Shown here: positions 49,970-62,377 of the stretch, one piece after another
Position numbering within the stretch: position 1 is the stretch's first letter
How the letters are laid out: every line of letters begins with the position of its first letter
NCBI GenBank assembly: GCA_963768055.1
Contig: CAVYGN010000001.1
Span: forward strand, 1,152,001-1,216,000
From: an uncultured Spirochaetota bacterium
Lineage (GTDB): Bacteria; Spirochaetota; Brevinematia; Brevinematales; JAOACQ01
DNA: 64,000 nt
Direction of reading: 5' to 3'
The notes under the pieces: model-generated
Seen by the model: the letters and a program-made list of their open reading frames with translations, nothing else
Database searches by the model: none
Told to the model about the DNA's origin: nothing
Made by a program: the position numbers and the translations under genes

Positions 49970-52900
49970 ATGGTAAATCATGACGACGTTATAAGAGAAC
50001 TAACGGGATCAAGCGAGTATTTAAGGGCGCTGATATCGAAAAATAACGATATTTATTATGAGTTGGAATCGGCTATCGCTGATTGGAACGATAAAAAGGT
50101 TTTTAAAAGAACCGCATATTATGAAAAATACCAATTTAAGGCATCTTTAAAGGATAATGAAGGCATACTTCTCCAATCAAGATTAATTAAAAACAGGGAA
50201 CTGGCTTTGATAGCTTTAAGGGATTTCTTACATATAAATTCAGTAAGCGATACTCTTACGGATCTTTCAAAACTCGCGGATTTCTGCATCGATTATTCAA
50301 TAAAAAGCCTGCTCAGTTTTTCAGACATTAAAAAAAGCGTTACTTATGAAGTTTTAAAAAGAAATCTTATAATTATCGGAATGGGCAAGCTCGGGGGCAA
50401 CGAACTCAATATAAGTTCAGACATAGATCTTATCTTTCTCGGGAAAGACTCAAGTCTGTCCGATGACGGTATGAGGCATGATATTGAAAACTTCCTTTCA
50501 AGGCTTCTTGATTTTATTTACGCAACTTCCAGCGAAGGATTTTTATATCGAGTCGATATGAGACTCAGGCCGGAGGGCGAAAACGGACCCTTGATCATGG
50601 GAATTCAAAACGCAATCGAATATTACAAAAGCAGGGCCAGGAAGTGGGAACTCCAGGCTATGATAAAAAAAAGACTTGTCTGGGGAAGCGAGGAACTCTA
50701 TCAGGATTTTGCAATCCCCCTTGACAATATTGTGTACCGGCACCATCAGCCCCAGAGTATCATTTACGATATTAAAAAGATCAAGAACGAAATCGAACTA
50801 AATATCCGGCGCAAAAAACTTGCGTTTGAAATAAAACAATCTCCCGGCGGCATAAGGGATATTGAATTTATTATCCAATTTCTCCAGCTTATTCATGGAA
50901 TCCGTTATCCCGAGATAAGGAACTCGAATTCAATATCGGCATTGGCCTCGCTAAATACTTTCCATATAATAACCCCTGACGAATTTACTACTCTGAATAT
51001 CAGTTATATCATCCTGAGGAAGATTGAAAATATACTTCAGCTGAAAAACAATACCCCCGAACATGCCTTGCCGGAAAAAGACAGCGATATCGAGAAACTT
51101 TTCAGATACTGGAAGATCGGCGGATTTGAAAGCGGTTCGGGCAATTATGGCAGGGATTTTAAAAACAGGGTCGCAAAGATTATGACGGATGTGAGAAGTA
51201 TTTTCTCATCCCTGTTCGACGAAACGATCCGTTATCTTGAATTAAAGGACAACCTTATCAAGGAGCATCCGGATATAGATAAAACTCTTCTTGAGGATCA
51301 TTTTCTGAGAATGGACAGCGAATATTTTCTCCGTTTCCAGGAAAATGAAATCTATAATCATATAAAAATGATCTCAAAGCTCGATCTTCAAAATCCCGCC
51401 GAGTTGGAAGCTGAAGAGGCCGGCCAGGGCAAATGGAAAATTACAATTGTAGCTTTTGATTATTATTATGAATTTTCCAAAATCGCGGGCCTGGTCTCCG
51501 CTTATTATTTAAAGATAATCAGCGGAGAATCATTTACATACAGCGATTATACGCCTTCGATAAGCAGTGATCCGGATACTATTTACAGGAGAAAAAAAAA
51601 GAGGATCTATCCCTTTTCCTCTGCAAATAAATCCGAATTACTTATATATAGAAGAAAAATAGTATGTTTTTTATTTGTTGCGCCGCTGGAAGGGCATGTC
51701 CTGGAAGGGTATGCCCCGGAGGGACCTGATTGGGATGCCTTTAAAAAAGAATTTATCCATATACTTAATTTCCTGGAAACTAACAGAATAAGAGAATCGG
51801 AGGAATTTCTCAACAATAAGATCCTGGGACTTATTTCCGGAATTCAATCCGGGGAAACCCTGATGCTTTCACCGGTCGATATAGAGGTGGACAATGATTC
51901 AAGCAGCCAGTATACCATATTGAACATACGTTCGAGAGACAGTTTCGCTTTCCTTTACACTTTTACCAATGTACTTGCCCTCAATAATTATTATATTTTT
52001 AAAATCGAAATAGATACTGTCGATGACAGGGCCTTCGACAGGCTGTTCATTCTCACCAGGGACGGTAAAAAAATACTGGAATCTGAAAAAATTGAAAATC
52101 TTAAAATAGCCGTCGCGCTTATCAAGCAGTATTCAACCTTGCTTCAGAACGCTGTCAACCCGGATAAGGCGCTTCATTATTTCGACGAACTTCTTTCAAA
52201 GGTACTTGAAAGCGGAGGTAAAACGGAATTGCCTATTCTCGGTCAGAATGACGTTCAGAAAAAACTTGCAACCGTTTTCGGGATCGGGGATTATTTTTGG
52301 GAGGATCTTATAAGATTTCAATACACAGATATGCTCCCTATATTGAACGATCCCTCGCTTGAATTACGATTTTCAAGAAGCCTTTTAACGGCCAATTTTA
52401 CAAATAATTATCTTAAAAAAAAACCTGAAGCAGAAGGCCTTGGTGAATTCGGAAAACATTTGAGTGAATGGAAAGATATGGAAATGTTCAGGATCGATCT
52501 CAGGCAGATCCTGAAAAAAATCGATATGATCCAATTTTCACTTGAACTGACTGAATTGGCTGAAGCTGTAATAGAAATAGCCCTTCAAAGGATAAATAAA
52601 GAAATTTTCGGGGTCCATGTTAAAAATATACCTCCCCTGGCCGTATTCGGCCTCGGAAAACTCGGAGGAAGGGAACTCGGATATGCTTCCGATATAGAAA
52701 TTATGTTTATTTATGATGATACCGATATCGGCGGCGACCTGGCCGATATCGATTCGTATTTTGAAAAATTCATTCAAACTTTTCTCAGCGTCATCCGTTC
52801 AAAGAGGGAGGGAATTTTTGAAATCGACCTCAACCTGAGGCCATATGGGAAGTCTTCCAAATTGTCGGTGTCAAAATCGAGCTTCTTTGAATATTTCACC

Positions 52901-53509
52901 GACGGCAAGGCTTATTATTTTGAAAAACAGGCGCTTGTTAAATTAAGGCCTGTTTCGAACGAAAAATCCTCCTTAAAATTAATACAGGAAATAACAGCCC
53001 ACCGCGATAAATTCGTTTACAGCGGGGAAAAGCCTGACATAACAGCGCTCCTGAATTTGAGGGAAAAGCAGATCCGCACATACATTAAGGATCCCGTTCT
53101 TACAAATATAAAATATTCTAAGGGGTGTCTCGTAGATATAGAATATCTGGTCCAGACCCTTCAGATTGCATATGGAAAGACTTTTTTATCCCTGAGACTC
53201 GAATCCACGCTCGAGGCTGCGGAGGCCCTCTTCAATACTGGTATAATTAGCGAACAGGTCCGGAACGGATTAACTGAAAGCTATCTTTTTTTCAGGAATC
53301 TGATAAATATTCTCCGAATGGTTAAGGGAAACGCCAAAGATCTGAATGTATACCCGGAATCTTCAATGGAATTCGATTACCTTGTCAGGAGGAGTTATTT
53401 TATCGGCATTATCGAACAGAAATCACCCTCGCTTTTAAAAAACATGATTGAAAAATACAGACAGCAAGTCTTAAATATTTTTAACGATGAAATCGGCAAG
53501 TTAAAATGA
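49970..53509 (+). CDS. glnE: Glutamine synthetase adenylyltransferase/deadenylase with internal ACT domains
   Basis: Two nucleotidyltransferase domains (GMGKLGGNELNISSDID..RVDMRLRP and GLGKLGGRELGYASDIE..EIDLNLRP) around a central GlnD-like ACT pair. Confidence 0.9.
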   Translation: MVNHDDVIRELTGSSEYLRALISKNNDIYYELESAIADWNDKKVFKRTAYYEKYQFKASLKDNEGILLQSRLIKNRELALIALRDFLHINSVSDTLTDLSKLADFCIDYSIKSLLSFSDIKKSVTYEVLKRNLIIIGMGKLGGNELNISSDIDLIFLGKDSSLSDDGMRHDIENFLSRLLDFIYATSSEGFLYRVDMRLRPEGENGPLIMGIQNAIEYYKSRARKWELQAMIKKRLVWGSEELYQDFAIPLDNIVYRHHQPQSIIYDIKKIKNEIELNIRRKKLAFEIKQSPGGIRDIEFIIQFLQLIHGIRYPEIRNSNSISALASLNTFHIITPDEFTTLNISYIILRKIENILQLKNNTPEHALPEKDSDIEKLFRYWKIGGFESGSGNYGRDFKNRVAKIMTDVRSIFSSLFDETIRYLELKDNLIKEHPDIDKTLLEDHFLRMDSEYFLRFQENEIYNHIKMISKLDLQNPAELEAEEAGQGKWKITIVAFDYYYEFSKIAGLVSAYYLKIISGESFTYSDYTPSISSDPDTIYRRKKKRIYPFSSANKSELLIYRRKIVCFLFVAPLEGHVLEGYAPEGPDWDAFKKEFIHILNFLETNRIRESEEFLNNKILGLISGIQSGETLMLSPVDIEVDNDSSSQYTILNIRSRDSFAFLYTFTNVLALNNYYIFKIEIDTVDDRAFDRLFILTRDGKKILESEKIENLKIAVALIKQYSTLLQNAVNPDKALHYFDELLSKVLESGGKTELPILGQNDVQKKLATVFGIGDYFWEDLIRFQYTDMLPILNDPSLELRFSRSLLTANFTNNYLKKKPEAEGLGEFGKHLSEWKDMEMFRIDLRQILKKIDMIQFSLELTELAEAVIEIALQRINKEIFGVHVKNIPPLAVFGLGKLGGRELGYASDIEIMFIYDDTDIGGDLADIDSYFEKFIQTFLSVIRSKREGIFEIDLNLRPYGKSSKLSVSKSSFFEYFTDGKAYYFEKQALVKLRPVSNEKSSLKLIQEITAHRDKFVYSGEKPDITALLNLREKQIRTYIKDPVLTNIKYSKGCLVDIEYLVQTLQIAYGKTFLSLRLESTLEAAEALFNTGIISEQVRNGLTESYLFFRNLINILRMVKGNAKDLNVYPESSMEFDYLVRRSYFIGIIEQKSPSLLKNMIEKYRQQVLNIFNDEIGKLK

Positions 53510-54397
53510 AATATTCCCGTTTATTTTTTTTATTTTCTTATCGTCGTACATAAGTGAATCCGCTGCCTTCAAAGCGTCTTTAAGGGCCTCCCTGCTAAAA
53601 TCATAAAGCTTGGAAATCCCGAAGGAAAGAGAAAGGCAGTATGGATTTCCTCTTTTATTATACTCGCTGACTTGCTCCCTTATCCGGGATATAACAGCGG
53701 TTTCAAGATTTTCGGACTTACCGGTTATTACAAGTACCGCAAACTCATCTCCTCCCATACGGGCAATAACATCCCATTCCCTGAAAACATTTTTTAAAAA
53801 TAACGCTGTGTCTTTAATAACAGCATCGCCGGTGTCATGACCGAAAGCATCGTTAATCAGCTTGAGATTGTCTATATCGATATAAACTATATGAGTAAAT
53901 AAATTATTCCTTGCGGCAAACTGGTATTGCTTGGCCGCCAATGCATAAAACCCTCTTCGGTTTGATAGTCCTGTAAGTTCGTCAGTTCTGGAGAGCCGGG
54001 AAACCGAGTTGAATAATCTGAAGCGTTCAACCGCATATTTGATCGATTTATTAATATTTTCAGCATTGATCTCGGACTTTACTAAATAATCCTGAGCTCC
54101 GAACCGTATAGAGGTAAGAGCCATCCTCTCATCCCTCAAGCCGGTCAGCACAATAATCGGCACATCGCTTGACAATAATTTTATATTATTGACTGTTTTA
54201 TTTCCCTGGCTGTCGGGCAGTTCTAGATCCAGAATAATCAGCCCTATGTCTTCGTTCAGGACTATTTTCTTCCCCTGCGCCAGGGTTTCCGCTTTAATTA
54301 TCCTGCTGTCTGTGTCCTTTAAGTACTCCTCCAGCAGCCTTGCATCCCCGGGGTTGTCCTCTATGACCAGGATATTGCCGTATTCTGTCGATATCAT
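53501..54397 (-). CDS. Response regulator diguanylate cyclase (REC-GGDEF)
   Basis: ILVIEDN, LDLELPD, DELTGLSNRR, REWD I-site and GGDEF motifs. Confidence 0.95.
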   Translation of the reverse strand: MISTEYGNILVIEDNPGDARLLEEYLKDTDSRIIKAETLAQGKKIVLNEDIGLIILDLELPDSQGNKTVNNIKLLSSDVPIIVLTGLRDERMALTSIRFGAQDYLVKSEINAENINKSIKYAVERFRLFNSVSRLSRTDELTGLSNRRGFYALAAKQYQFAARNNLFTHIVYIDIDNLKLINDAFGHDTGDAVIKDTALFLKNVFREWDVIARMGGDEFAVLVITGKSENLETAVISRIREQVSEYNKRGNPYCLSLSFGISKLYDFSREALKDALKAADSLMYDDKKIKKINGNISF

Positions 54398-55944
54398 CCT
54401 GAACTCCCGGACCCATTTTGGGCCTCCAGTTCAGCGGGAATAGTAAAATAAAAAGTCGATCCTTTTTGCACTTCCGATTCAACCCAGATATTACCCCCAT
54501 GTCTTTCAACTATTTTCTTGCAGATTGAGAGGCCTATGCCGGTTCCCCCGTATTCGGACCTGGGATGAAGGCGCTGGAAGATCACAAATATCTTTTCGAA
54601 GTAAGCCGGATCTATTCCAATACCGTTGTCCTTAACTGAGAACAGCCATTTCCTGCCGCATTTCGATGCTGAAACAGCGATGCATGGTTTTTCACTCCCC
54701 TTGAACTTTATAGAATTTGACACAAGGTTTTCAAAAAGTTGTATAAGCTGCGCCCTGTCATATAAGATCTTCGGGAGACGGCTATGGGTAATTTCTACCC
54801 CGCTCTCCTTAATAGCCACAGCCAGATCTATTTTTATCTCTTCAATGATCTCGTTGCAGTCGATAATTGCAGGAGGATTACCCATAGTAGATATTCTCGA
54901 GTAATCGAGCAAATCGTTAATAAAGTTCTGCATTCTTGTGGCGCCGTCGACGGCAAAATTGATGAATTCGTCCGCATTTTTGTCAAGTTTACCCTTGTAC
55001 CGGTCAGAAAGGAGTTTTGTATAGCTTGCAACCATCCTCAGGGGTTCCTGGAGGTCATGGGAGGCCACATAGGCGAATTGTTCAAGGTCATGATTGGAAC
55101 GCCTCAACTCTTCCTGGGTTTTTTTCAAATCGGAAATTTCATGCAGAACGGAAATTATTTTCATGGGTTCGCCATGTTCATCATAAACGACCCTCGAATT
55201 GATAAGCACAGGATACTTCTTGCCATTTTTATCCATTATCTCTATTTCGAAATTTCTAAAACACCCATCGTTCAAGCATTGAGAAAGGCTTTTAACCATC
55301 CTGACATGTTCCTCTTCATCTATCATTTGAAGCGGCATGCTGCCTATAACTTCCTGTTCATTATAGCCTGTTAATTCAAGGAACGCCCTGTTCACCTGTA
55401 TTATCCTCCCCTGCAGGTCTGTTACTTCAATGGGATCCATCATGCCTTCGATAATTTCGGATGCCGTTTTAAGCGACTTGGCGGTTAATAAGGCCGTTTC
55501 CCTTTCAGCCTGTTCCTTTTTAAGCTCCGTTATGTCGTTAAATACAACCAGGAGGTTCTGGGCGCCATTGATATTGAAAGAGATGAACCGGTTGTTAAGC
55601 CATATATCCTTTCCGGTTTCTGTTGTAATATGGATTTCTCTTTCAGCCTCCTCCCCGGTATTAAGGGTATAATCTTTAGCCTCAATAAACCCTGAATTCT
55701 TCCGGTTTTCAAGAAAGCCGGGAAAACCCTTGCCGATTTTCATCAGGGTCCGATTTGCCGCCACAAGGTTCCCGTTATTATCGTACAATGCTATGCCTAC
55801 CGGAAGAATATCTATTATTTTCTTGTCAAATTCCAGGATATCCTGCCGGGGTTGCAGCGATGAATTATTCTTCAACACTTCAATTTCTCTTTCAAGTTCC
55901 ACGATCTTTTGCTTTAATCTGAAAACATCTTCCTTTTCTTTCAT
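54394..55944 (-). CDS. Cytoplasmic PAS-PAS histidine kinase
   Basis: Two PAS domains; FAYVASHDLQEPLR, DNGIGI and GTGIGL motifs; coupled to the DGC gene. Confidence 0.93.
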   Translation of the reverse strand: MKEKEDVFRLKQKIVELEREIEVLKNNSSLQPRQDILEFDKKIIDILPVGIALYDNNGNLVAANRTLMKIGKGFPGFLENRKNSGFIEAKDYTLNTGEEAEREIHITTETGKDIWLNNRFISFNINGAQNLLVVFNDITELKKEQAERETALLTAKSLKTASEIIEGMMDPIEVTDLQGRIIQVNRAFLELTGYNEQEVIGSMPLQMIDEEEHVRMVKSLSQCLNDGCFRNFEIEIMDKNGKKYPVLINSRVVYDEHGEPMKIISVLHEISDLKKTQEELRRSNHDLEQFAYVASHDLQEPLRMVASYTKLLSDRYKGKLDKNADEFINFAVDGATRMQNFINDLLDYSRISTMGNPPAIIDCNEIIEEIKIDLAVAIKESGVEITHSRLPKILYDRAQLIQLFENLVSNSIKFKGSEKPCIAVSASKCGRKWLFSVKDNGIGIDPAYFEKIFVIFQRLHPRSEYGGTGIGLSICKKIVERHGGNIWVESEVQKGSTFYFTIPAELEAQNGSGSSG

Positions 55945-56059: not shown

Positions 56060-56091
56060 AAAAAAAACCCGCCCGTTAAAAGGGCGGGTTT
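56060..56091 (-). terminator. Intrinsic terminator of glnA
   Basis: AAACCCGCCC-TTTTAAC-GGGCGGG followed by 8 T on the minus strand. Confidence 0.9.
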
Positions 56092-56128: not shown

Positions 56129-57547
56129 TTAAATATCGTAGTAGAGGAAAAACTCGTAGGGATGCGGCCTCTGCTGAATAGCCCTGACTTCGTTAACCAT
56201 TTTATATTCTATCCAGGTATCGATCACGTCTTTTGTGAATACATCGCCCTTCAGGAGAAACTCATGGTCGTTTTGAAGGTTGTTTAAAGCCTCTTCGAGC
56301 GAACCTGGAATGTTGCCGACTTTAGACTGTTCTTCCGGAGGAAGATCGTAGATATTTTTATCCATCGGCTCGCCTGGGTCAATCTTATTCTGGATTCCGT
56401 CGAGTCCGGCCAGGAGCATAGCGGAAAACGCAAGGTAAGGGTTACAGCTCGGATCGGGTGTCCTGAATTCAAGCCGTTTTGACGCAGGGTTTGTAGAATA
56501 CATTGGAATTCTTACGGCAGCGCTTCTATTCCTTGCCGAATATGCCAGTTTGATTGGTGCTTCGAAGCCGGGAACAAGCCTCTTATAAGAATTCATAGTA
56601 GGACAGGTAATGGCGACAAGGGAATTAGCGTGCTTTAAAATTCCGCCGATATACCAGAGTCCTTCCTGCGAAAATCCGGCATATTTATTACCAGCAAAGA
56701 GGTTTTTACCGCCCTTCCAGATACTCTGATGGCAATGCATACCGCTTCCATTATCGCCGAAGAGAGGCTTGGGCATGAATGTAACGGTCTTGCAGTTGTT
56801 GACGGCTACGCTCTTCGTAACGTATTTATAAAATAGAACCTGGTCGGCCATTTTCACGAGATCGGTATACCTCATATCTATTTCAGCCTGTCCGGCTGTT
56901 GCGACTTCATGATGGTGCGCTTCGATGCGGATTCCGACTTTTTCAAGCATCTGCACCATTTCACTTCGGATGTCCATAAGAGAATCGGAGGGAGGAACCG
57001 GGAAATATCCTTCTTTATGCCTGATCTTATAACCCTTGTTCCCGCATTCTTCTACCCTGCCTGTATTCCATACGCCTTCATCGGAATCGATGTAATAATA
57101 GCCCTCTTTCGCATTCTGGCCGTATCTTATATCATCGAATATGAAGAATTCAAGCTCCGGGCCAATATAAATAGTGTCTCCTATTCCGGTGCTTTTTAAA
57201 TAATTGACCGCTTTTTTAGCGATATGCCTCGGATCTCTTGTGTATTCCTGGAGGGTGATGGGATCCTTGATATCCGCTATCATTATCAAAGTGGGATACT
57301 GTGAGAACGGATCGATTACAGCAGTAGTCGGGTCAGCCATTAAAAGCATATCGGATTCGTTAATCCCCTGCCAGCCTCGGATGGAAGAACCGTCAAATCC
57401 TAATCCTTCCTCAAAAGGACTTTCGTCCTTGAATTCTGAAACAGGATAAGTACAGTGCTGCCACATACCCGGAAAATCCATGAAACGCAAATCTACCTGA
57501 ACGATACCTTCTTTTTTTATCAGGTCCAATACTCCTTTAGCGTCCAT
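56129..57547 (-). CDS. glnA: Glutamine synthetase type I (beta type, adenylylatable)
   Basis: [38 protein letters not shown] and NRSA motifs; adenylylation site NIYDLP. Confidence 0.99.
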
Positions 57548-57590
57548 ATATATACCTCCTTAATTTTATGCGAAACGCTGTCTTTTAGAG

Positions 57591-57606
57591 AGCAATTATT
57601 GTTCCA
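57591..57606 (-). promoter_or_regulatory. sigma54 (-24/-12) promoter of glnA
   Basis: TGGAACAATAATTGCT: GG-N10-GC, close match to TGGCAC-N5-TTGCW, 44 nt upstream of the ATG. Confidence 0.8.
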
Positions 57607-57639
57607 TAATTTTAACTTTTTAGGATACTTCCACACAAG

Positions 57640-57679
57640 CAGGTAACCCTAACGGACACAGGTACCCTGCGGGCACAGG
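57640..57679. repeat. GC-rich tandem repeat in the glnA upstream region
   Basis: CAGGTAACCCTAACGGACA CAGGTACCCTGCGGGCA CAGG. Confidence 0.55.
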
Positions 57680-57747
57680 CAATTATTATAATTAACTAAA
57701 ATTAAATTACAACTTTTATTAAATAATTTCTTGAGGGTTAAATTTAT

Positions 57748-57776
57748 TTGCTTATATTTTACTCAACACTTATAAT
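57748..57776 (+). promoter_or_regulatory. sigma70-type promoter of the sigma54 activator gene
   Basis: TTGCTT-17nt-TATAAT, 34 nt upstream of ATG 57811. Confidence 0.65.
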
Positions 57777-57810
57777 AATGATTAAATAATAATCATATCA
57801 AGGAATAAGT

Positions 57811-59886
57811 ATGGACAATAATTACACTAAGGAACTTGAGGAAAAGATAAAACGGTTAAAACTTATCCAATATCTCACAATAGCTATGAACGAGACTTCC
57901 GATTCCCAGGAACTTTTAAAAATAATGCTTGATAAATGCATAGCTATTACGGGCGCTGACAGCGGTTCAATTATGATAAAAGACCCCGGTTCCAGGCACC
58001 TGCGTTACGAGGCGTTTAAGGGGCTTGACGAGGATATGGTCTTCCGGACCCCGATCGAAGTGGGTGAAGGCCTCACAGGAACTGTGTTTCAGGATGGAAT
58101 TCCCAGGCTTGTCAGTGATGTAAGTATCGATCCGGTCTATATTTCTGTACGGAAGGATATACGGTCGGAACTGGCAGTCCCGCTCTCAGTACAGGGAAAA
58201 ATAATAGGTGTTGTTAATGTTGACAGCGCTAAGATAGGTGCTTTTACCGAGGGCGACATGGAATTTCTGCAGACAATATCCAACCAGGCCGCCCAGATAC
58301 TTGTCAGAACAAACCTGAACCATCAACTTGAAAGTAAAATAAAATTCAAGGATATTCTTCTGGATATATCCCAGAGTATTGAAAAGATCTTCGAATTGTC
58401 GGATTCATTTGAAATCGTGATGAAAAAACTGGCTGACAGCTTTGGAATTTACAGGGGAATGCTCGTTCTCTTCGAGAAGAACGAACCGAATAAGCTTTCG
58501 ATATATAACGCCTACAATATTACAGACGAAGAAATGTCCCGAGGTATTTACAAAGTAGGCGAAGGAGTCGTAGGCAAGGTCGTCGAAACCGGCAAGGCCC
58601 TTTCAATTAAAGATATCAATAAAGACGATTCATATCTCAACAGGCTTCAAATCAAGCGCGATAAAAATGTCCCGATCTCTTTTATAGCAGTTCCGATAAA
58701 AATCGAGGGGATAGTAGTAGGCGTTCTCGCTGTCGAAAAATACTTTGAAAATGAGAACACTTTAAACGACGAGGAAGACATGATGATCCTTGTGGCAAAT
58801 ATCATAGCAAATAAAGTCAAATCGTGGGAAAGAATATATAAAGACAAAGAGAATCTCATCGCTGAAAATACTATTCTAAAAAAAGAGCTTTTCAAGAATT
58901 TCGCAATCGACAATATTATCGGTAAAAACAAGCAAATGATAGCGGTTTTCGAACTTATTAAAACCGTGTCCGACAGCAATTCATCTATTTTGATCCTAGG
59001 TGAAAGCGGTACAGGTAAAGAACTTGTCGCCCAGGCCCTGCATGTCGGAAGCGGAAGAAAGGATTCCCCCTTTGTAAGCATCAACTGCGCATCGATCCCT
59101 GAAAATCTTCTCGAGTCCGAACTCTTCGGATATAAAAAAGGGGCTTTTACCGGTGCGATATCCGATAAAAAGGGGAAATTTCAATTGGCTAACGGGGGGA
59201 CAATATTCCTCGATGAAATCGGCGATATGCCCCTTTATCTTCAGGCAAAACTTTTAAGGGCTATACAGGAAAGGGAAATCGAACCCCTCGGCAGCGAGGC
59301 CAAAATAAAAATAGATATCAGGATCATTTCGGCAACCAACAAGGAGCTTGATAAATTGATAAAGGACGGAAAATTCAGGAAAGACCTTTATTACCGCCTC
59401 AATGTAATCGAAATCCAGATACCCCCTCTGAGGAGCAGAAAAGACGATATCCCGCTTCTTGTAAACCATTTTATCAAAAAGTATTCAACCCGGGACAACA
59501 AAAATGTGTATGGCATCTCGCAGGAATCTTTAAGGCTCCTCCAGTCTTATAACTGGCCGGGCAATATCAGGGAACTTGAAAATGTAATTGAAAGAGCGGT
59601 TCTCCTCTGCCGGTCTCAGACTATTGAGGTTGTGAACCTCCCGTCATTTCTCATGGATATAGAAGAAGTGCCTGATATTCATATAAGCAAATGGATAGAA
59701 GGCTTTGTTAAAAATCCGGCCTGCAACGGGAAACTTTATGAAAGGATTATAGGCCATATTGAAAAGGAGCTTATTTCAAGGTCTCTTATATTCAACAATC
59801 GAAACAAGGTCAAGACCTCGGACTTTCTCGGCATCAACAGGAATACCCTTAGAAGCAAGATGGAAGAGTATAATATCAAAATATAA
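57811..59886 (+). CDS. GAF-GAF sigma54-dependent enhancer-binding protein (NifA/FhlA-like)
   Basis: Two GAF domains; GESGTGKE, ESELFG, GAFTGA, FLDEIG and WPGNIREL motifs; Fis-type HTH (LGINRNTLR). Confidence 0.93.
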   Translation: MDNNYTKELEEKIKRLKLIQYLTIAMNETSDSQELLKIMLDKCIAITGADSGSIMIKDPGSRHLRYEAFKGLDEDMVFRTPIEVGEGLTGTVFQDGIPRLVSDVSIDPVYISVRKDIRSELAVPLSVQGKIIGVVNVDSAKIGAFTEGDMEFLQTISNQAAQILVRTNLNHQLESKIKFKDILLDISQSIEKIFELSDSFEIVMKKLADSFGIYRGMLVLFEKNEPNKLSIYNAYNITDEEMSRGIYKVGEGVVGKVVETGKALSIKDINKDDSYLNRLQIKRDKNVPISFIAVPIKIEGIVVGVLAVEKYFENENTLNDEEDMMILVANIIANKVKSWERIYKDKENLIAENTILKKELFKNFAIDNIIGKNKQMIAVFELIKTVSDSNSSILILGESGTGKELVAQALHVGSGRKDSPFVSINCASIPENLLESELFGYKKGAFTGAISDKKGKFQLANGGTIFLDEIGDMPLYLQAKLLRAIQEREIEPLGSEAKIKIDIRIISATNKELDKLIKDGKFRKDLYYRLNVIEIQIPPLRSRKDDIPLLVNHFIKKYSTRDNKNVYGISQESLRLLQSYNWPGNIRELENVIERAVLLCRSQTIEVVNLPSFLMDIEEVPDIHISKWIEGFVKNPACNGKLYERIIGHIEKELISRSLIFNNRNKVKTSDFLGINRNTLRSKMEEYNIKI

Positions 59887-60622: not shown

Positions 60623-62377
60623 TTAAGGAACTTTGAAGACCAGGATGGTCATATCATCCCACTGGGGAGCTCCGTTCGACCACAAATCGATTTCCCTGAA
60701 GATGATGTTTACAATAGTCGATGAGTTTAAAGAAGAATATTCCTTTATTAATTTTTTAAGCCTTTCAAGCCCGAAATCGGCGCCCTTGTCGTTTACAGCG
60801 TCAATGATGCCATCCGTGAAGCAGAATACCAGATCGCCCTGATCAAGCTGGATGCTTGAAGATATGTAATTCTCGGATTTTGTAATTCCAAGCGGAATAC
60901 CCTTGCTTGAAAGAGAATCGAATTGCCCCGTCCTCGTTTTGTAAACATATTGGAGATTATGTCCGGCGTTCGAATATTCCAGGATCCTCCTGTTCAAGTC
61001 AAGACTGCCGTAAAACATCGTAACGAACATCCCTACTCTCGAATCTTCAACAAGAATATCATTTGAATATTCCAGGAGCCTGTGAGGTTCCTTGGTATGA
61101 AACGCGTAGGCTTTCACCACGCTTCTGGATACAGCCATATATAAGGATGCCGGTAGGCCTTTCCCCGAAACATCTCCTATTACGAATCCGATCCTGCTCG
61201 GGGTTAATGTATATATATCGTAAAAATCCCCGCCGACAACTTCAGCCGTCTGCATCTTCGCAAACACCGATATATTTTTAAAGGTATTGAAATCGCTTAT
61301 CAGCAGGGCATTTTGAAGGGTTTTCATGATATCGATTTCCTTTTTGATCTTTTCATGCTCGAGCTGTTCATTATAACTCAATATGCTTTCATATGTATGG
61401 CCTACCTGGTTGGCGATCGTCCTCAGTGTTTTTATCATTTCAGGCGTGTATCGAGCCCATTTTTTAGGTTCGGAAATATTGATAACTCCGACGCATATGT
61501 TTTTAATCTTGATAGGGGTGCAGATAAAGCTTGCATTTTTATACCTGAACCGTTTGTTCCTGCCCAGACCGGTCTTTTCAATATCGTTTGAATAAATTGT
61601 TTTACCCTGCTTCATAGCCCTGCTCGATATTTTATCTATATCGAGGCTGTGTTCCATTTTTTCCACTACATCCTGAGGCATGCCGATGGCACTCTCAATG
61701 TGAAGATTGCCTGTTTTTTCATTAATAAACATTATTGATACACGGTGCGAATTGAAGATTTTCGACAGCAGTTCTACAATCTTTGAGAAGAGAACCTTCC
61801 TGTCATATGTAAGATTTGTGAGATTGGATATCTGGTAAAGATATTCCAGTTCTTTGGCCCTTGTTTGTATAGCCTTATATAACAGGGCATTAGCAATGGC
61901 TGTTGCAGCCTGTTCGGCAAACTGTTTCAATAGCATTACGTCATCGTCTGTAAATATTTTTTTGGCGGGATTTATTACCTCGATGACCCCTATCGATTTT
62001 TCATTGTGGATCAGGGGCATTGCAAGGAGATTTTTTGTTTTCAGATTGGTCTTTTCATCGACCCCTTTGTAAAACCTTTCATCCTTTTCCGCATCGTAAA
62101 CGATGACATGCTCCTTGGTCTGAGCCGCATATCCTGCAATGCCTTTTCCCTTAGGAACTATTACATCGCTGAGGGCGTCTGCATTTTCTCCAAACGCTAC
62201 CTCGAAAAACATGTTGTTGGTATCAGGGTCTACAAGCAGAATGGATGCGCCTTCCGCATTCAGGAGAACGCCGGAATAATGAGAAATGTCATTCAGAATG
62301 CTGCGTACATCCTCAATCGAGTTGATCTTCCTGTTTATATCAAGTACTGCCTGTAAATCTTCTATCTTTAAAGCCAT
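60623..62377 (-). CDS. GAF-GAF SpoIIE/PP2C (RsbU-like) phosphatase
   Basis: Two GAF domains; VGGDFYD, GDVSGKG, MFVT, NAGH, TDGI and DDMT motifs. Confidence 0.93.
   Translation of the reverse strand: MALKIEDLQAVLDINRKINSIEDVRSILNDISHYSGVLLNAEGASILLVDPDTNNMFFEVAFGENADALSDVIVPKGKGIAGYAAQTKEHVIVYDAEKDERFYKGVDEKTNLKTKNLLAMPLIHNEKSIGVIEVINPAKKIFTDDDVMLLKQFAEQAATAIANALLYKAIQTRAKELEYLYQISNLTNLTYDRKVLFSKIVELLSKIFNSHRVSIMFINEKTGNLHIESAIGMPQDVVEKMEHSLDIDKISSRAMKQGKTIYSNDIEKTGLGRNKRFRYKNASFICTPIKIKNICVGVINISEPKKWARYTPEMIKTLRTIANQVGHTYESILSYNEQLEHEKIKKEIDIMKTLQNALLISDFNTFKNISVFAKMQTAEVVGGDFYDIYTLTPSRIGFVIGDVSGKGLPASLYMAVSRSVVKAYAFHTKEPHRLLEYSNDILVEDSRVGMFVTMFYGSLDLNRRILEYSNAGHNLQYVYKTRTGQFDSLSSKGIPLGITKSENYISSSIQLDQGDLVFCFTDGIIDAVNDKGADFGLERLKKLIKEYSSLNSSTIVNIIFREIDLWSNGAPQWDDMTILVFKVP

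Follow-up and report, generated by a model that had tools for sequence, protein, structure and literature searches.

A GAF-GAF sigma-54 regulator divergent from glnA, a predicted activator of nitrogen genes and probable EbpA orthologue in an uncultured Brevinematales spirochaete

What controls glutamine synthetase when its gene stands head to head with a sigma-54 regulator that has no receiver domain? The question is raised by an uncultured spirochaete of the order Brevinematales, whose genome comprises 3.69 Mb in two contigs (C1 and C2) with a G+C content of 41.5%. The locus lies in a 64,000-nucleotide (nt) stretch, C1:1152001–1216000, that we refer to as the window; coordinates given without a contig name are positions in the window. 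Here glnA (56129–57547, minus strand) and a gene encoding two GAF domains, an AAA+ domain and a helix-turn-helix (57811–59886, plus strand; hereafter the activator) are divergently transcribed. A preliminary description of this DNA proposed the activator as a one-component, metabolite-sensing substitute for NtrC at glnA, and the circuit as an undescribed system. We read the activator as the Brevinematales orthologue of EbpA of Leptospira, a sigma-54 enhancer-binding protein with tandem GAF input that acts through dyad sites on nitrogen genes, and assign this reading a probability of roughly 80%. Very probably, it is the divergent GAF-GAF protein that activates glnA with sigma-54.

The glnA product is a type I glutamine synthetase of 472 amino acids (Pfam Gln-synt_C, E = 2e-136; 676 bits on NCBIfam TIGR00653 against a cut-off of 429) and is the sole Gln-synt_C match in the genome. 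It contains the NIYDLP motif (Tyr400) of the adenylylation type. A hairpin resembling an intrinsic terminator lies directly 3' of the gene (56065–56091, minus strand; 10 pairs, 7 of them G-C, followed by a T run), so glnA looks monocistronic. Upstream, on the glnA strand, are a ribosome-binding site AGGAGG (57555–57560) and the sigma-54-type -24/-12 element TGGAAC-N5-TTGCT (57591–57606), whose -12 GC at 57593–57592 predicts a transcription start near 57580 and a leader of 33 nt. This element was already part of the preliminary description and is present at that position. A -24/-12 match precedes glnA in 13/13 loci with glnA divergent from the activator; these loci come from several families, and their flanking intergenic sequence has diverged.

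The same description singled out a 17-mer shaped like an enhancer site at 57749–57765, spanning -169 to -185 from the predicted glnA start (centre ~-177), and the position is as it was given. Seeded with this 17-mer, a palindromic matrix of 17 columns was refined on 20 activator-proximal intergenic regions and converged on TGATTAAAATTTAATCA. The 17-mer scored 19.3 bits (dyad A), and a second 17-bp site, dyad B (57779–57795), scored 21.8 bits with its centre ~-207 from the glnA start; the two begin exactly 30 bp apart. That spacing was shared by the two best matrix sites in 14/20 of the related intergenic regions. Across the whole 3.69-Mb genome only 5 sites reached 18 bits or more, two of them dyads A and B, and 26 reached 15 bits or more. 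The 17-mer is thus a real and conserved enhancer-type site, far beyond chance, at which binding is predicted. What did not hold was its description as a single site, since it belongs to a pair 30 bp apart and the predicted regulon exceeds glnA. The pair recurred in two more families of the phylum, at -27/-57 and -39/-69 from the activator start, which indicates that the sites travel with the activator gene itself.

The dyads also fall on the proposed sigma-70 promoter of the activator (57748–57776, plus strand), which combines a -35 TTGCTT, a 17-nt spacer and a -10 TATAAT (57771–57776). Dyad A overlaps the -35 and dyad B covers the expected start site. The TATAAT, on the activator strand between both dyads, is conserved in relatives, so this part of the promoter as first proposed was upheld, while its -35 is weak. 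With site A on a weak -35 and site B on the expected start, the arrangement has the layout of an autorepressed promoter, and the overlap between the 17-mer and the activator's own promoter that had been pointed out earlier fits autoregulation. One further feature between enhancer and promoter, a G+C-rich stretch of ~50 bp with imperfect direct repeats (57630–57680) in an otherwise A+T-rich intergenic region, was considered as an enhancer and rejected, being unique in this genome and missing from same-genus relatives; it is probably no functional part.

The activator is a protein of 691 amino acids with the architecture of an EbpA-type bacterial enhancer-binding protein, and the order GAF-GAF-AAA+(GAFTGA)-helix-turn-helix first read from its translation was borne out by Pfam matches and motif positions. 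GAF domain 1 (GAF1; 57898–58302, residues 30–164) has the GAF domains of PtsP (enzyme I-Ntr) as its closest solved relatives by sequence, and GAF domain 2 (GAF2; 58354–58821, residues ~182–337) those of Aquifex Nlh1 and Nlh2 and of NifA. The sigma-54 interaction (AAA+) domain (58915–59418, residues 369–536) matched Sigma54_activat (PF00158) at E = 6.5e-73, together with an AAA lid, and contains Walker A, GAFTGA and Walker B motifs (first residues: GESGTGKE, 397; GAFTGA, 444; FLDEIG, 466). A Fis-type helix-turn-helix follows (59758–59871, residues 650–687; HTH_8 at 25.4 bits, cut-off 22); all these domains are encoded on the plus strand. No Response_reg match to a receiver domain was found in the protein with Pfam. 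Among 17 orthologues, the F, T, G and A of the GAFTGA loop were invariant, as was LGINR-T-L in the helix-turn-helix, with the intervening Asn678 nearly so. The genome also encodes the matching sigma factor, which had been left to be checked: a profile search recovered rpoN at C2:75129–75593 (Sigma54_DBD, 183 bits). With AAA+ motifs, helix-turn-helix, rpoN and -24/-12 target promoters all present, the activator has the makings of a bacterial enhancer-binding protein, and open-complex formation by it is predicted.

Does the association with nitrogen genes extend beyond this locus? We searched 41 related genomes, and additionally the phylum with the GAF-GAF part alone. A wide locus search by full-length alignment returned at least 80 loci, which matched via peptides of the AAA+ core, most of them unrelated sigma-54 regulators. 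Full-length orthologues of the activator were present in 28/41 related genomes. Their neighbours were a divergent glnA in 13 loci (this one included), a divergent gene for type III glutamine synthetase in five, the divergent large-subunit gene gltB in two, amtB directly downstream in two and unrelated genes in the remaining six. Synteny was thus found for glnA in 13 of the 28 loci, with other nitrogen genes elsewhere. The five type III synthetases were called by Pfam (three), by similarity (one) and, for L026, by an identical N-terminal coding sequence only; three of the five genes were preceded by a -24/-12 match. Beyond the order, a divergent glnA or type III synthetase gene was again seen in other families of the phylum (L136, L140, L153).

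Absence followed the same lines. Within the order, the small-genome family f6 was without the activator in 12/12 genomes, its sole regulator matching the AAA+ part. Glutamine synthetase was missing in 3/3 and AmtB in 2/2 of the f6 genomes searched for them, and PII was matched in 0/8. That one regulator is linked to four different assimilation genes would be difficult to account for if it did not regulate nitrogen assimilation, even though the genomes are not independent samples. Sigma-54 regulators were also seen paired with nitrogen-assimilation genes in more distant records. In a Verrucomicrobiota record and an unclassified record (L044:3130–3510, L045:3060–3510), a single-GAF sigma-54 regulator was divergent from gltB or glnA, and the intergenic regions contained repeated ACAATATTGT palindromes in place of the spirochaete dyad. 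Similar pairings occurred in an Acidobacteriota record (L049), where the regulator had no match to the activator GAF region, and in a Spirochaetaceae record (L038) with a single GAF.

Genome-wide, the dyad separated nitrogen genes from other sigma-54-like promoters. The sigma-54 pattern had 67 matches in the genome, and only four of these had a dyad of at least 16 bits at 40–260 bp upstream; all four precede nitrogen genes. The next best dyad score among the 67 was 10.2 bits, and random 220-bp windows reached 16 bits at a rate of 0.0004. Three of the four promoters, all but that of glnA with its dyad pair, were unused in matrix building. The first of these three, a single sigma-54 promoter with a 21.9-bit dyad, precedes an amtB-glnK operon at C2:1508963. 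Directly after this operon, in the same row (C2:1508963–1513386; L118, L172), is a full-length GlnD-like gene (363 bits over profile positions 13–845, below the cut-off of 519). The second precedes another amtB-glnK operon (C1:254862). The third stands before a gene outside the window (C1:99203–101104; L117:2204–4105) whose 633-amino-acid product joins an amino-acid permease part (AA_permease_2) with PII at the C-terminus, and upstream of this sigma-54 promoter are three dyad sites at spacings of 30 and 31 bp. Behind the fusion gene there is another, partial match to PII (C1:101153–101374). Promoter plus dyad were also found in relatives, before the type III synthetase gene and amtB of genome G008 and before amtB of G014.

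Could another regulator occupy these sites? The genome encodes seven sigma-54 regulators, including three of the receiver-AAA+-helix-turn-helix type. One of these three, as an NtrC-family regulator, might activate glnA and the amtB operons, with the GAF-GAF protein controlling something else. Two are encoded beside a histidine kinase, all three score 355–407 bits on the NtrC model (TIGR01818), and one scores best on NtrX. However, the NtrC cut-off is 558.6 bits, and none of the four regulators scanned, the three receiver types and the activator (344.1 bits), reached it. Kinase family calls rest on the 25 best families listed per protein, and no NtrB-type family was among these for the two kinases beside the receiver-type regulators or for the kinase downstream of glnA; the preliminary description had asked whether ntrBC is present, and this is the answer among the proteins scanned. 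Moreover, the dyad pair accompanies the GAF-GAF gene regardless of which gene is beside it, and it is the GAF-GAF gene that is linked to four different nitrogen genes and lost together with them in family f6. We consider control by a receiver-type regulator quite improbable.

The family models also brought up other names for the activator. Its best NCBIfam match was NifA (TIGR01817), at 475.3 bits against a cut-off of 528.85, followed by PrdR, NorR and AtoC. If it were an orthologue of NifA, FhlA or NorR, serving nitrogenase, formate hydrogenlyase or NO reductase, its place beside glnA would be coincidental. Apart from the NifA score itself, the evidence speaks the other way. All these matches are below their cut-offs (342.9 bits against 830 for FhlA, PRK15429; NorR under its cut-off of 476), and the NifA match spans only residues 183–608, which correspond to GAF2 and the AAA+ domain with its lid. 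Furthermore, nifH was not found in the genome, where the best Fer4_NifH match had 28.9 bits over 42 positions (profile positions 3–44). Such an assignment is hardly credible, and the NifA, FhlA, NorR and NtrC identities were all rejected on cut-offs and context. Two of the sigma-54 regulators of this genome, both encoded outside the window, are unusual, with domains read by eye: an 1820-amino-acid Ser/Thr-kinase-like regulator ending in GAF-AAA+-helix-turn-helix with a weak GAF match (C1:1003237–1008699), and one of 938 amino acids with an N-terminus like a periplasmic binding protein (C2:1231074–1233890).

The known regulator that the activator does resemble is EbpA. A 2025 review (PMC12655853) and a study of transcription start sites in Leptospira interrogans (PMC5243855) describe two sigma-54 regulators in this species, EbpA (LIC_10132; two GAF domains, AAA+ and helix-turn-helix) and the receiver-type EbpB. 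According to these sources, amtB and two lipoprotein genes are activated by EbpA together with sigma-54, growth of an ebpA mutant is poor when nitrogen is limiting, and glnA is listed as a sigma-54 target by software prediction only (PMC12655853, PMC5243855). In our phylum-wide GAF-GAF search, family f15 showed open frames of 708–710 amino acids at ~140 kb of contig 1 (called as a protein of 699 amino acids in L147). The f15 protein and the activator are reciprocal best hits with 44% identity over the full length, and the reverse search gave the activator 536 bits against 296 for the next protein. Genus g23 of this family has exactly two sigma-54 regulators, of ~710 and 450–476 amino acids by open frame, in 3/3 genomes, and f15 genomes have a good -24/-12 element before one amtB copy. 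Because the gene position, these counts, sizes and the amtB promoter fit the published Leptospira picture, we took f15 as Leptospira and the activator as the EbpA orthologue. In a protein atlas, the Leptospira-like protein was placed solely in unspecific clusters of sigma-54 regulators and of FhlA.

The claim of an undescribed system was therefore dropped, the activator being a probable orthologue of a known protein. It is a new member, from the unstudied order Brevinematales, of the EbpA-type nitrogen regulators of spirochaetes. The two share their phylum, the architecture of two GAF domains, AAA+ and helix-turn-helix without a receiver, and an amtB target dependent on sigma-54, which here is predicted; the role in nitrogen-limited growth, published for EbpA, would by extension apply to the activator. 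They also differ. The activator is head to head with glnA, whereas its counterpart in Leptospira-like genomes has no nitrogen gene closer than 1.5 kb. Here direct control of glnA (in relatives, of the type III synthetase gene) is predicted, compared with the purely software-based prediction for Leptospira glnA in those sources. The dyad consensus in Leptospira-like genomes also seems shifted to TGC...GCA-type sites upstream of amtB. What would be new in Brevinematales is the predicted binding site, the regulon and the autoregulatory layout. The literature searched, which included sigma-54 regulons of spirochaetes, described neither such a circuit for Brevinematales nor a GAF-type activator acting on glnA.

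Enteric NtrC sites are 17-bp dyads, paired about three helical turns apart, that overlap a sigma-70 promoter which they repress. Paired 17-bp dyads about three helical turns apart and overlapping a sigma-70 promoter are found here as well, and, as at enteric glnAp2, glnA and amtB-glnK are predicted to be activated with sigma-54 by protein bound at sites upstream. The systems differ in that the activator has no receiver domain, that no NtrB partner was found, that its input is a tandem GAF module and that its site is A+T-rich (TGATTA-N5-TAATCA). With NifA, Nlh1 and Nlh2 it has in common the GAF2 and AAA+ parts that give the best family score, but it has two GAF domains where they have one, and its predicted targets are assimilation genes rather than nif genes. 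In the model we propose, activator dimers would bind the two dyads (~TGATTA-N5-TAATCA), whose starts are separated by 30 bp, or three helical turns, and whose centres lie at ~-177 and ~-207 from the glnA start. Under nitrogen limitation, the AAA+ domain would be freed by the GAF module and the protein would form a ring, which would loop to the sigma-54 holoenzyme at TGGAAC-N5-TTGCT and open the glnA promoter. Since the dyads also cover the -35 and start site of its own sigma-70 promoter, the bound protein would repress its own synthesis. The same combination of dyad and sigma-54 promoter would drive the two amtB-glnK operons, one of them followed by the GlnD-like gene, and the permease-PII fusion gene. 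By this predicted activation of nitrogen genes, the activator would take the part that NtrC has in enteric bacteria.

Several points weigh against this account. The start site of glnA, the binding and the regulation are all predicted from sequence, and the related genomes are non-independent samples because of their kinship. A search for transcript data covering 56129–59886 returned none. The assignment of f15 to Leptospira, and of the activator as orthologue of LIC_10132, is drawn from genome features, not names. The activator promoter was unlisted by the consensus scanner because its -35 matches at 3/6 positions only. Neither a -24/-12 element nor a dyad was found at gltB of this genome, no -24/-12 match was found in the two relatives with gltB facing the activator, and amtB of genome G007, genus g4 (L167), has a sigma-54 promoter but no dyad of at least 11 bits. 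A canonical NtrBC pair was not found among the regulators and kinases scanned, though three receiver-type sigma-54 regulators are encoded. In the window as a whole, the sigma-54 pattern taken alone is at chance level (3 matches against 1.69 expected; 24/100 shuffles reach 3), and a sigma-70-like promoter, TTGTAA-16-TATAAT, with 10/12 matches, is directed at glnA (57685–57712, minus strand), so that sigma-54 is possibly not the sole route.

Taken further, these last two observations could mean that the -24/-12 element is fortuitous or vestigial and that glnA is transcribed from the sigma-70-like promoter. We think this very improbable. The candidate -24/-12 element exceeds chance by its position and conservation, not by the pattern alone: it is kept in every glnA locus facing the activator amid diverged flanks, and it places the predicted start 33 nt before the start codon. 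An element similar to the sigma-70-like promoter was seen by eye in some same-genus relatives only (L008, L009, L011). In any case, both promoters may coexist, as glnAp1 and glnAp2 do in Escherichia coli, and the sigma-70-like element may be a basal promoter comparable to glnAp1.

What signal would the EbpA-type activator respond to? A model of its N-terminal 355 residues (mean predicted local distance difference test, 87.8) showed tandem GAF domains linked by long helices, like the regulatory modules of PDE5 and CyaB2. GAF2 was nearest to the GAF domains of Nlh1 and Nlh2 by sequence (E ~6e-14) and to that of Nlh2 in fold. According to a review, the GAF domain of Nlh1 and Nlh2 keeps the ATPase in an inactive dimer (in Nlh1, the GAF dimer separates the ATPase domains) until ligand binds. 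GAF1 (residues 14–162) matched the PtsP GAF across the whole domain (E = 3e-8; template-modelling score ~0.83 on the target), and GAF domains of free methionine-sulfoxide reductases matched it almost equally well. As far as the sources on these proteins extend, the PtsP GAF binds glutamine and in NifA from Azotobacter vinelandii the GAF has 2-oxoglutarate as its ligand. Since relatives of GAF1 and GAF2 bind glutamine or 2-oxoglutarate, direct sensing of either metabolite is plausible. The output domain of PtsP is unlike that of the activator, and ligand binding by GAF1, known for PtsP, would apply here only by analogy. That the activator itself senses glutamine or 2-oxoglutarate, in line with the metabolite sensing supposed in the preliminary description, is a tentative proposal to which we give somewhat less than even odds.

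The signal could also arrive through PII. GlnD would sense glutamine and uridylylate GlnK, and GlnK or its uridylylated form (GlnK-UMP) would attach to the GAF module, in the manner of GlnB and the GAF domain of Azospirillum NifA, whose control by PII (GlnB) is described in a review. The regulon would be the same, but the circuit would not be one-component. Several features are consistent with this route: GlnK is encoded twice, one amtB-glnK operon is directly followed by a full-length GlnD-like gene, the GlnK alignment shows Tyr51 within a conserved T-loop context, and GAF2 is of the NifA type, for which control by PII is described. Because glnK and the GlnD-like gene are in the predicted regulon, PII, the GlnD-like protein and the activator would form a feedback loop. 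On the other side, direct contact between GlnK and the activator is purely a surmise, and both precedents above, the glutamine-binding PtsP GAF that GAF1 most resembles and the 2-oxoglutarate-binding NifA GAF, favour metabolite sensing. A complex prediction for GlnK (three copies) with the GAF-GAF module scored 0.01 against a mark of 0.32 and speaks neither way. We regard the PII route as possible, at odds only a little below those of direct sensing. The most far-reaching version of direct sensing by the EbpA-type activator, that throughout the Spirochaetota a single polypeptide replaces NtrBC, with GAF1 binding glutamine and GAF2 binding 2-oxoglutarate and the opposing signals merged on one coiled-coil linker that gates the AAA+ ring, is speculative and, in our view, unlikely.

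GAF domains of this kind were found in a second protein of the window. Two genes from the activator, at 60623–62377 (minus strand), is a gene for a tandem-GAF PP2C (SpoIIE-type) phosphatase whose GAF part is 25% identical to the GAF-GAF region of the activator (E = 5e-16). Its second GAF matches the NifA N-terminus. Many genomes of the phylum encode proteins of 584–608 amino acids that likewise match the GAF-GAF region of the activator. The phosphatase might share the ligand of the activator. With a NifA-type GAF in both proteins, one ligand could drive a transcriptional and a protein-phosphorylation branch of nitrogen control.

The neighbours on the other side of glnA were examined as well. 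Past the glnA terminator, at 53501–55944 (minus strand), are genes for a histidine kinase with a PAS domain and for a diguanylate cyclase of receiver-GGDEF build, a placement that recalls glnA-ntrB-ntrC but has cyclic di-GMP as its output. The kinase is of the PAS-HisKA, PnpS/PhoR type and the best NCBIfam name of its partner is Leptospira DgcR, both below cut-offs. A glnA-ntrB-ntrC-like operon was considered and rejected, given the terminator after glnA, a kinase without an NtrB-type match and a response regulator that is a diguanylate cyclase. Next to these genes, at 49970–53509 (plus strand), is the gene that the preliminary description had called ACT-GlnE and had joined to the proposed circuit. 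It encodes a GlnE-like protein of 1179 amino acids with two GlnE nucleotidyltransferase stretches, and an internal region of it (~635–715) resembles the ACT portion of GlnD (PRK05092, 70 bits; Pfam ACT-like 23 bits, below the cut-off).

For an almost unstudied order of spirochaetes, the locus offers a testable, sequence-level model of nitrogen control that specifies site, spacing, regulon and autoregulatory layout. The ligand of EbpA-type GAF domains is not stated in the portions of the EbpA literature covered here, and small, well-conserved proteins with defined targets would make the question testable in vitro. If the proposed orthology is right, the EbpA-RpoN pathway of Leptospira would widen twice over: what is known from one organism would become a regulator of the whole phylum, and its targets would include the genes of glutamine synthetase besides amtB.

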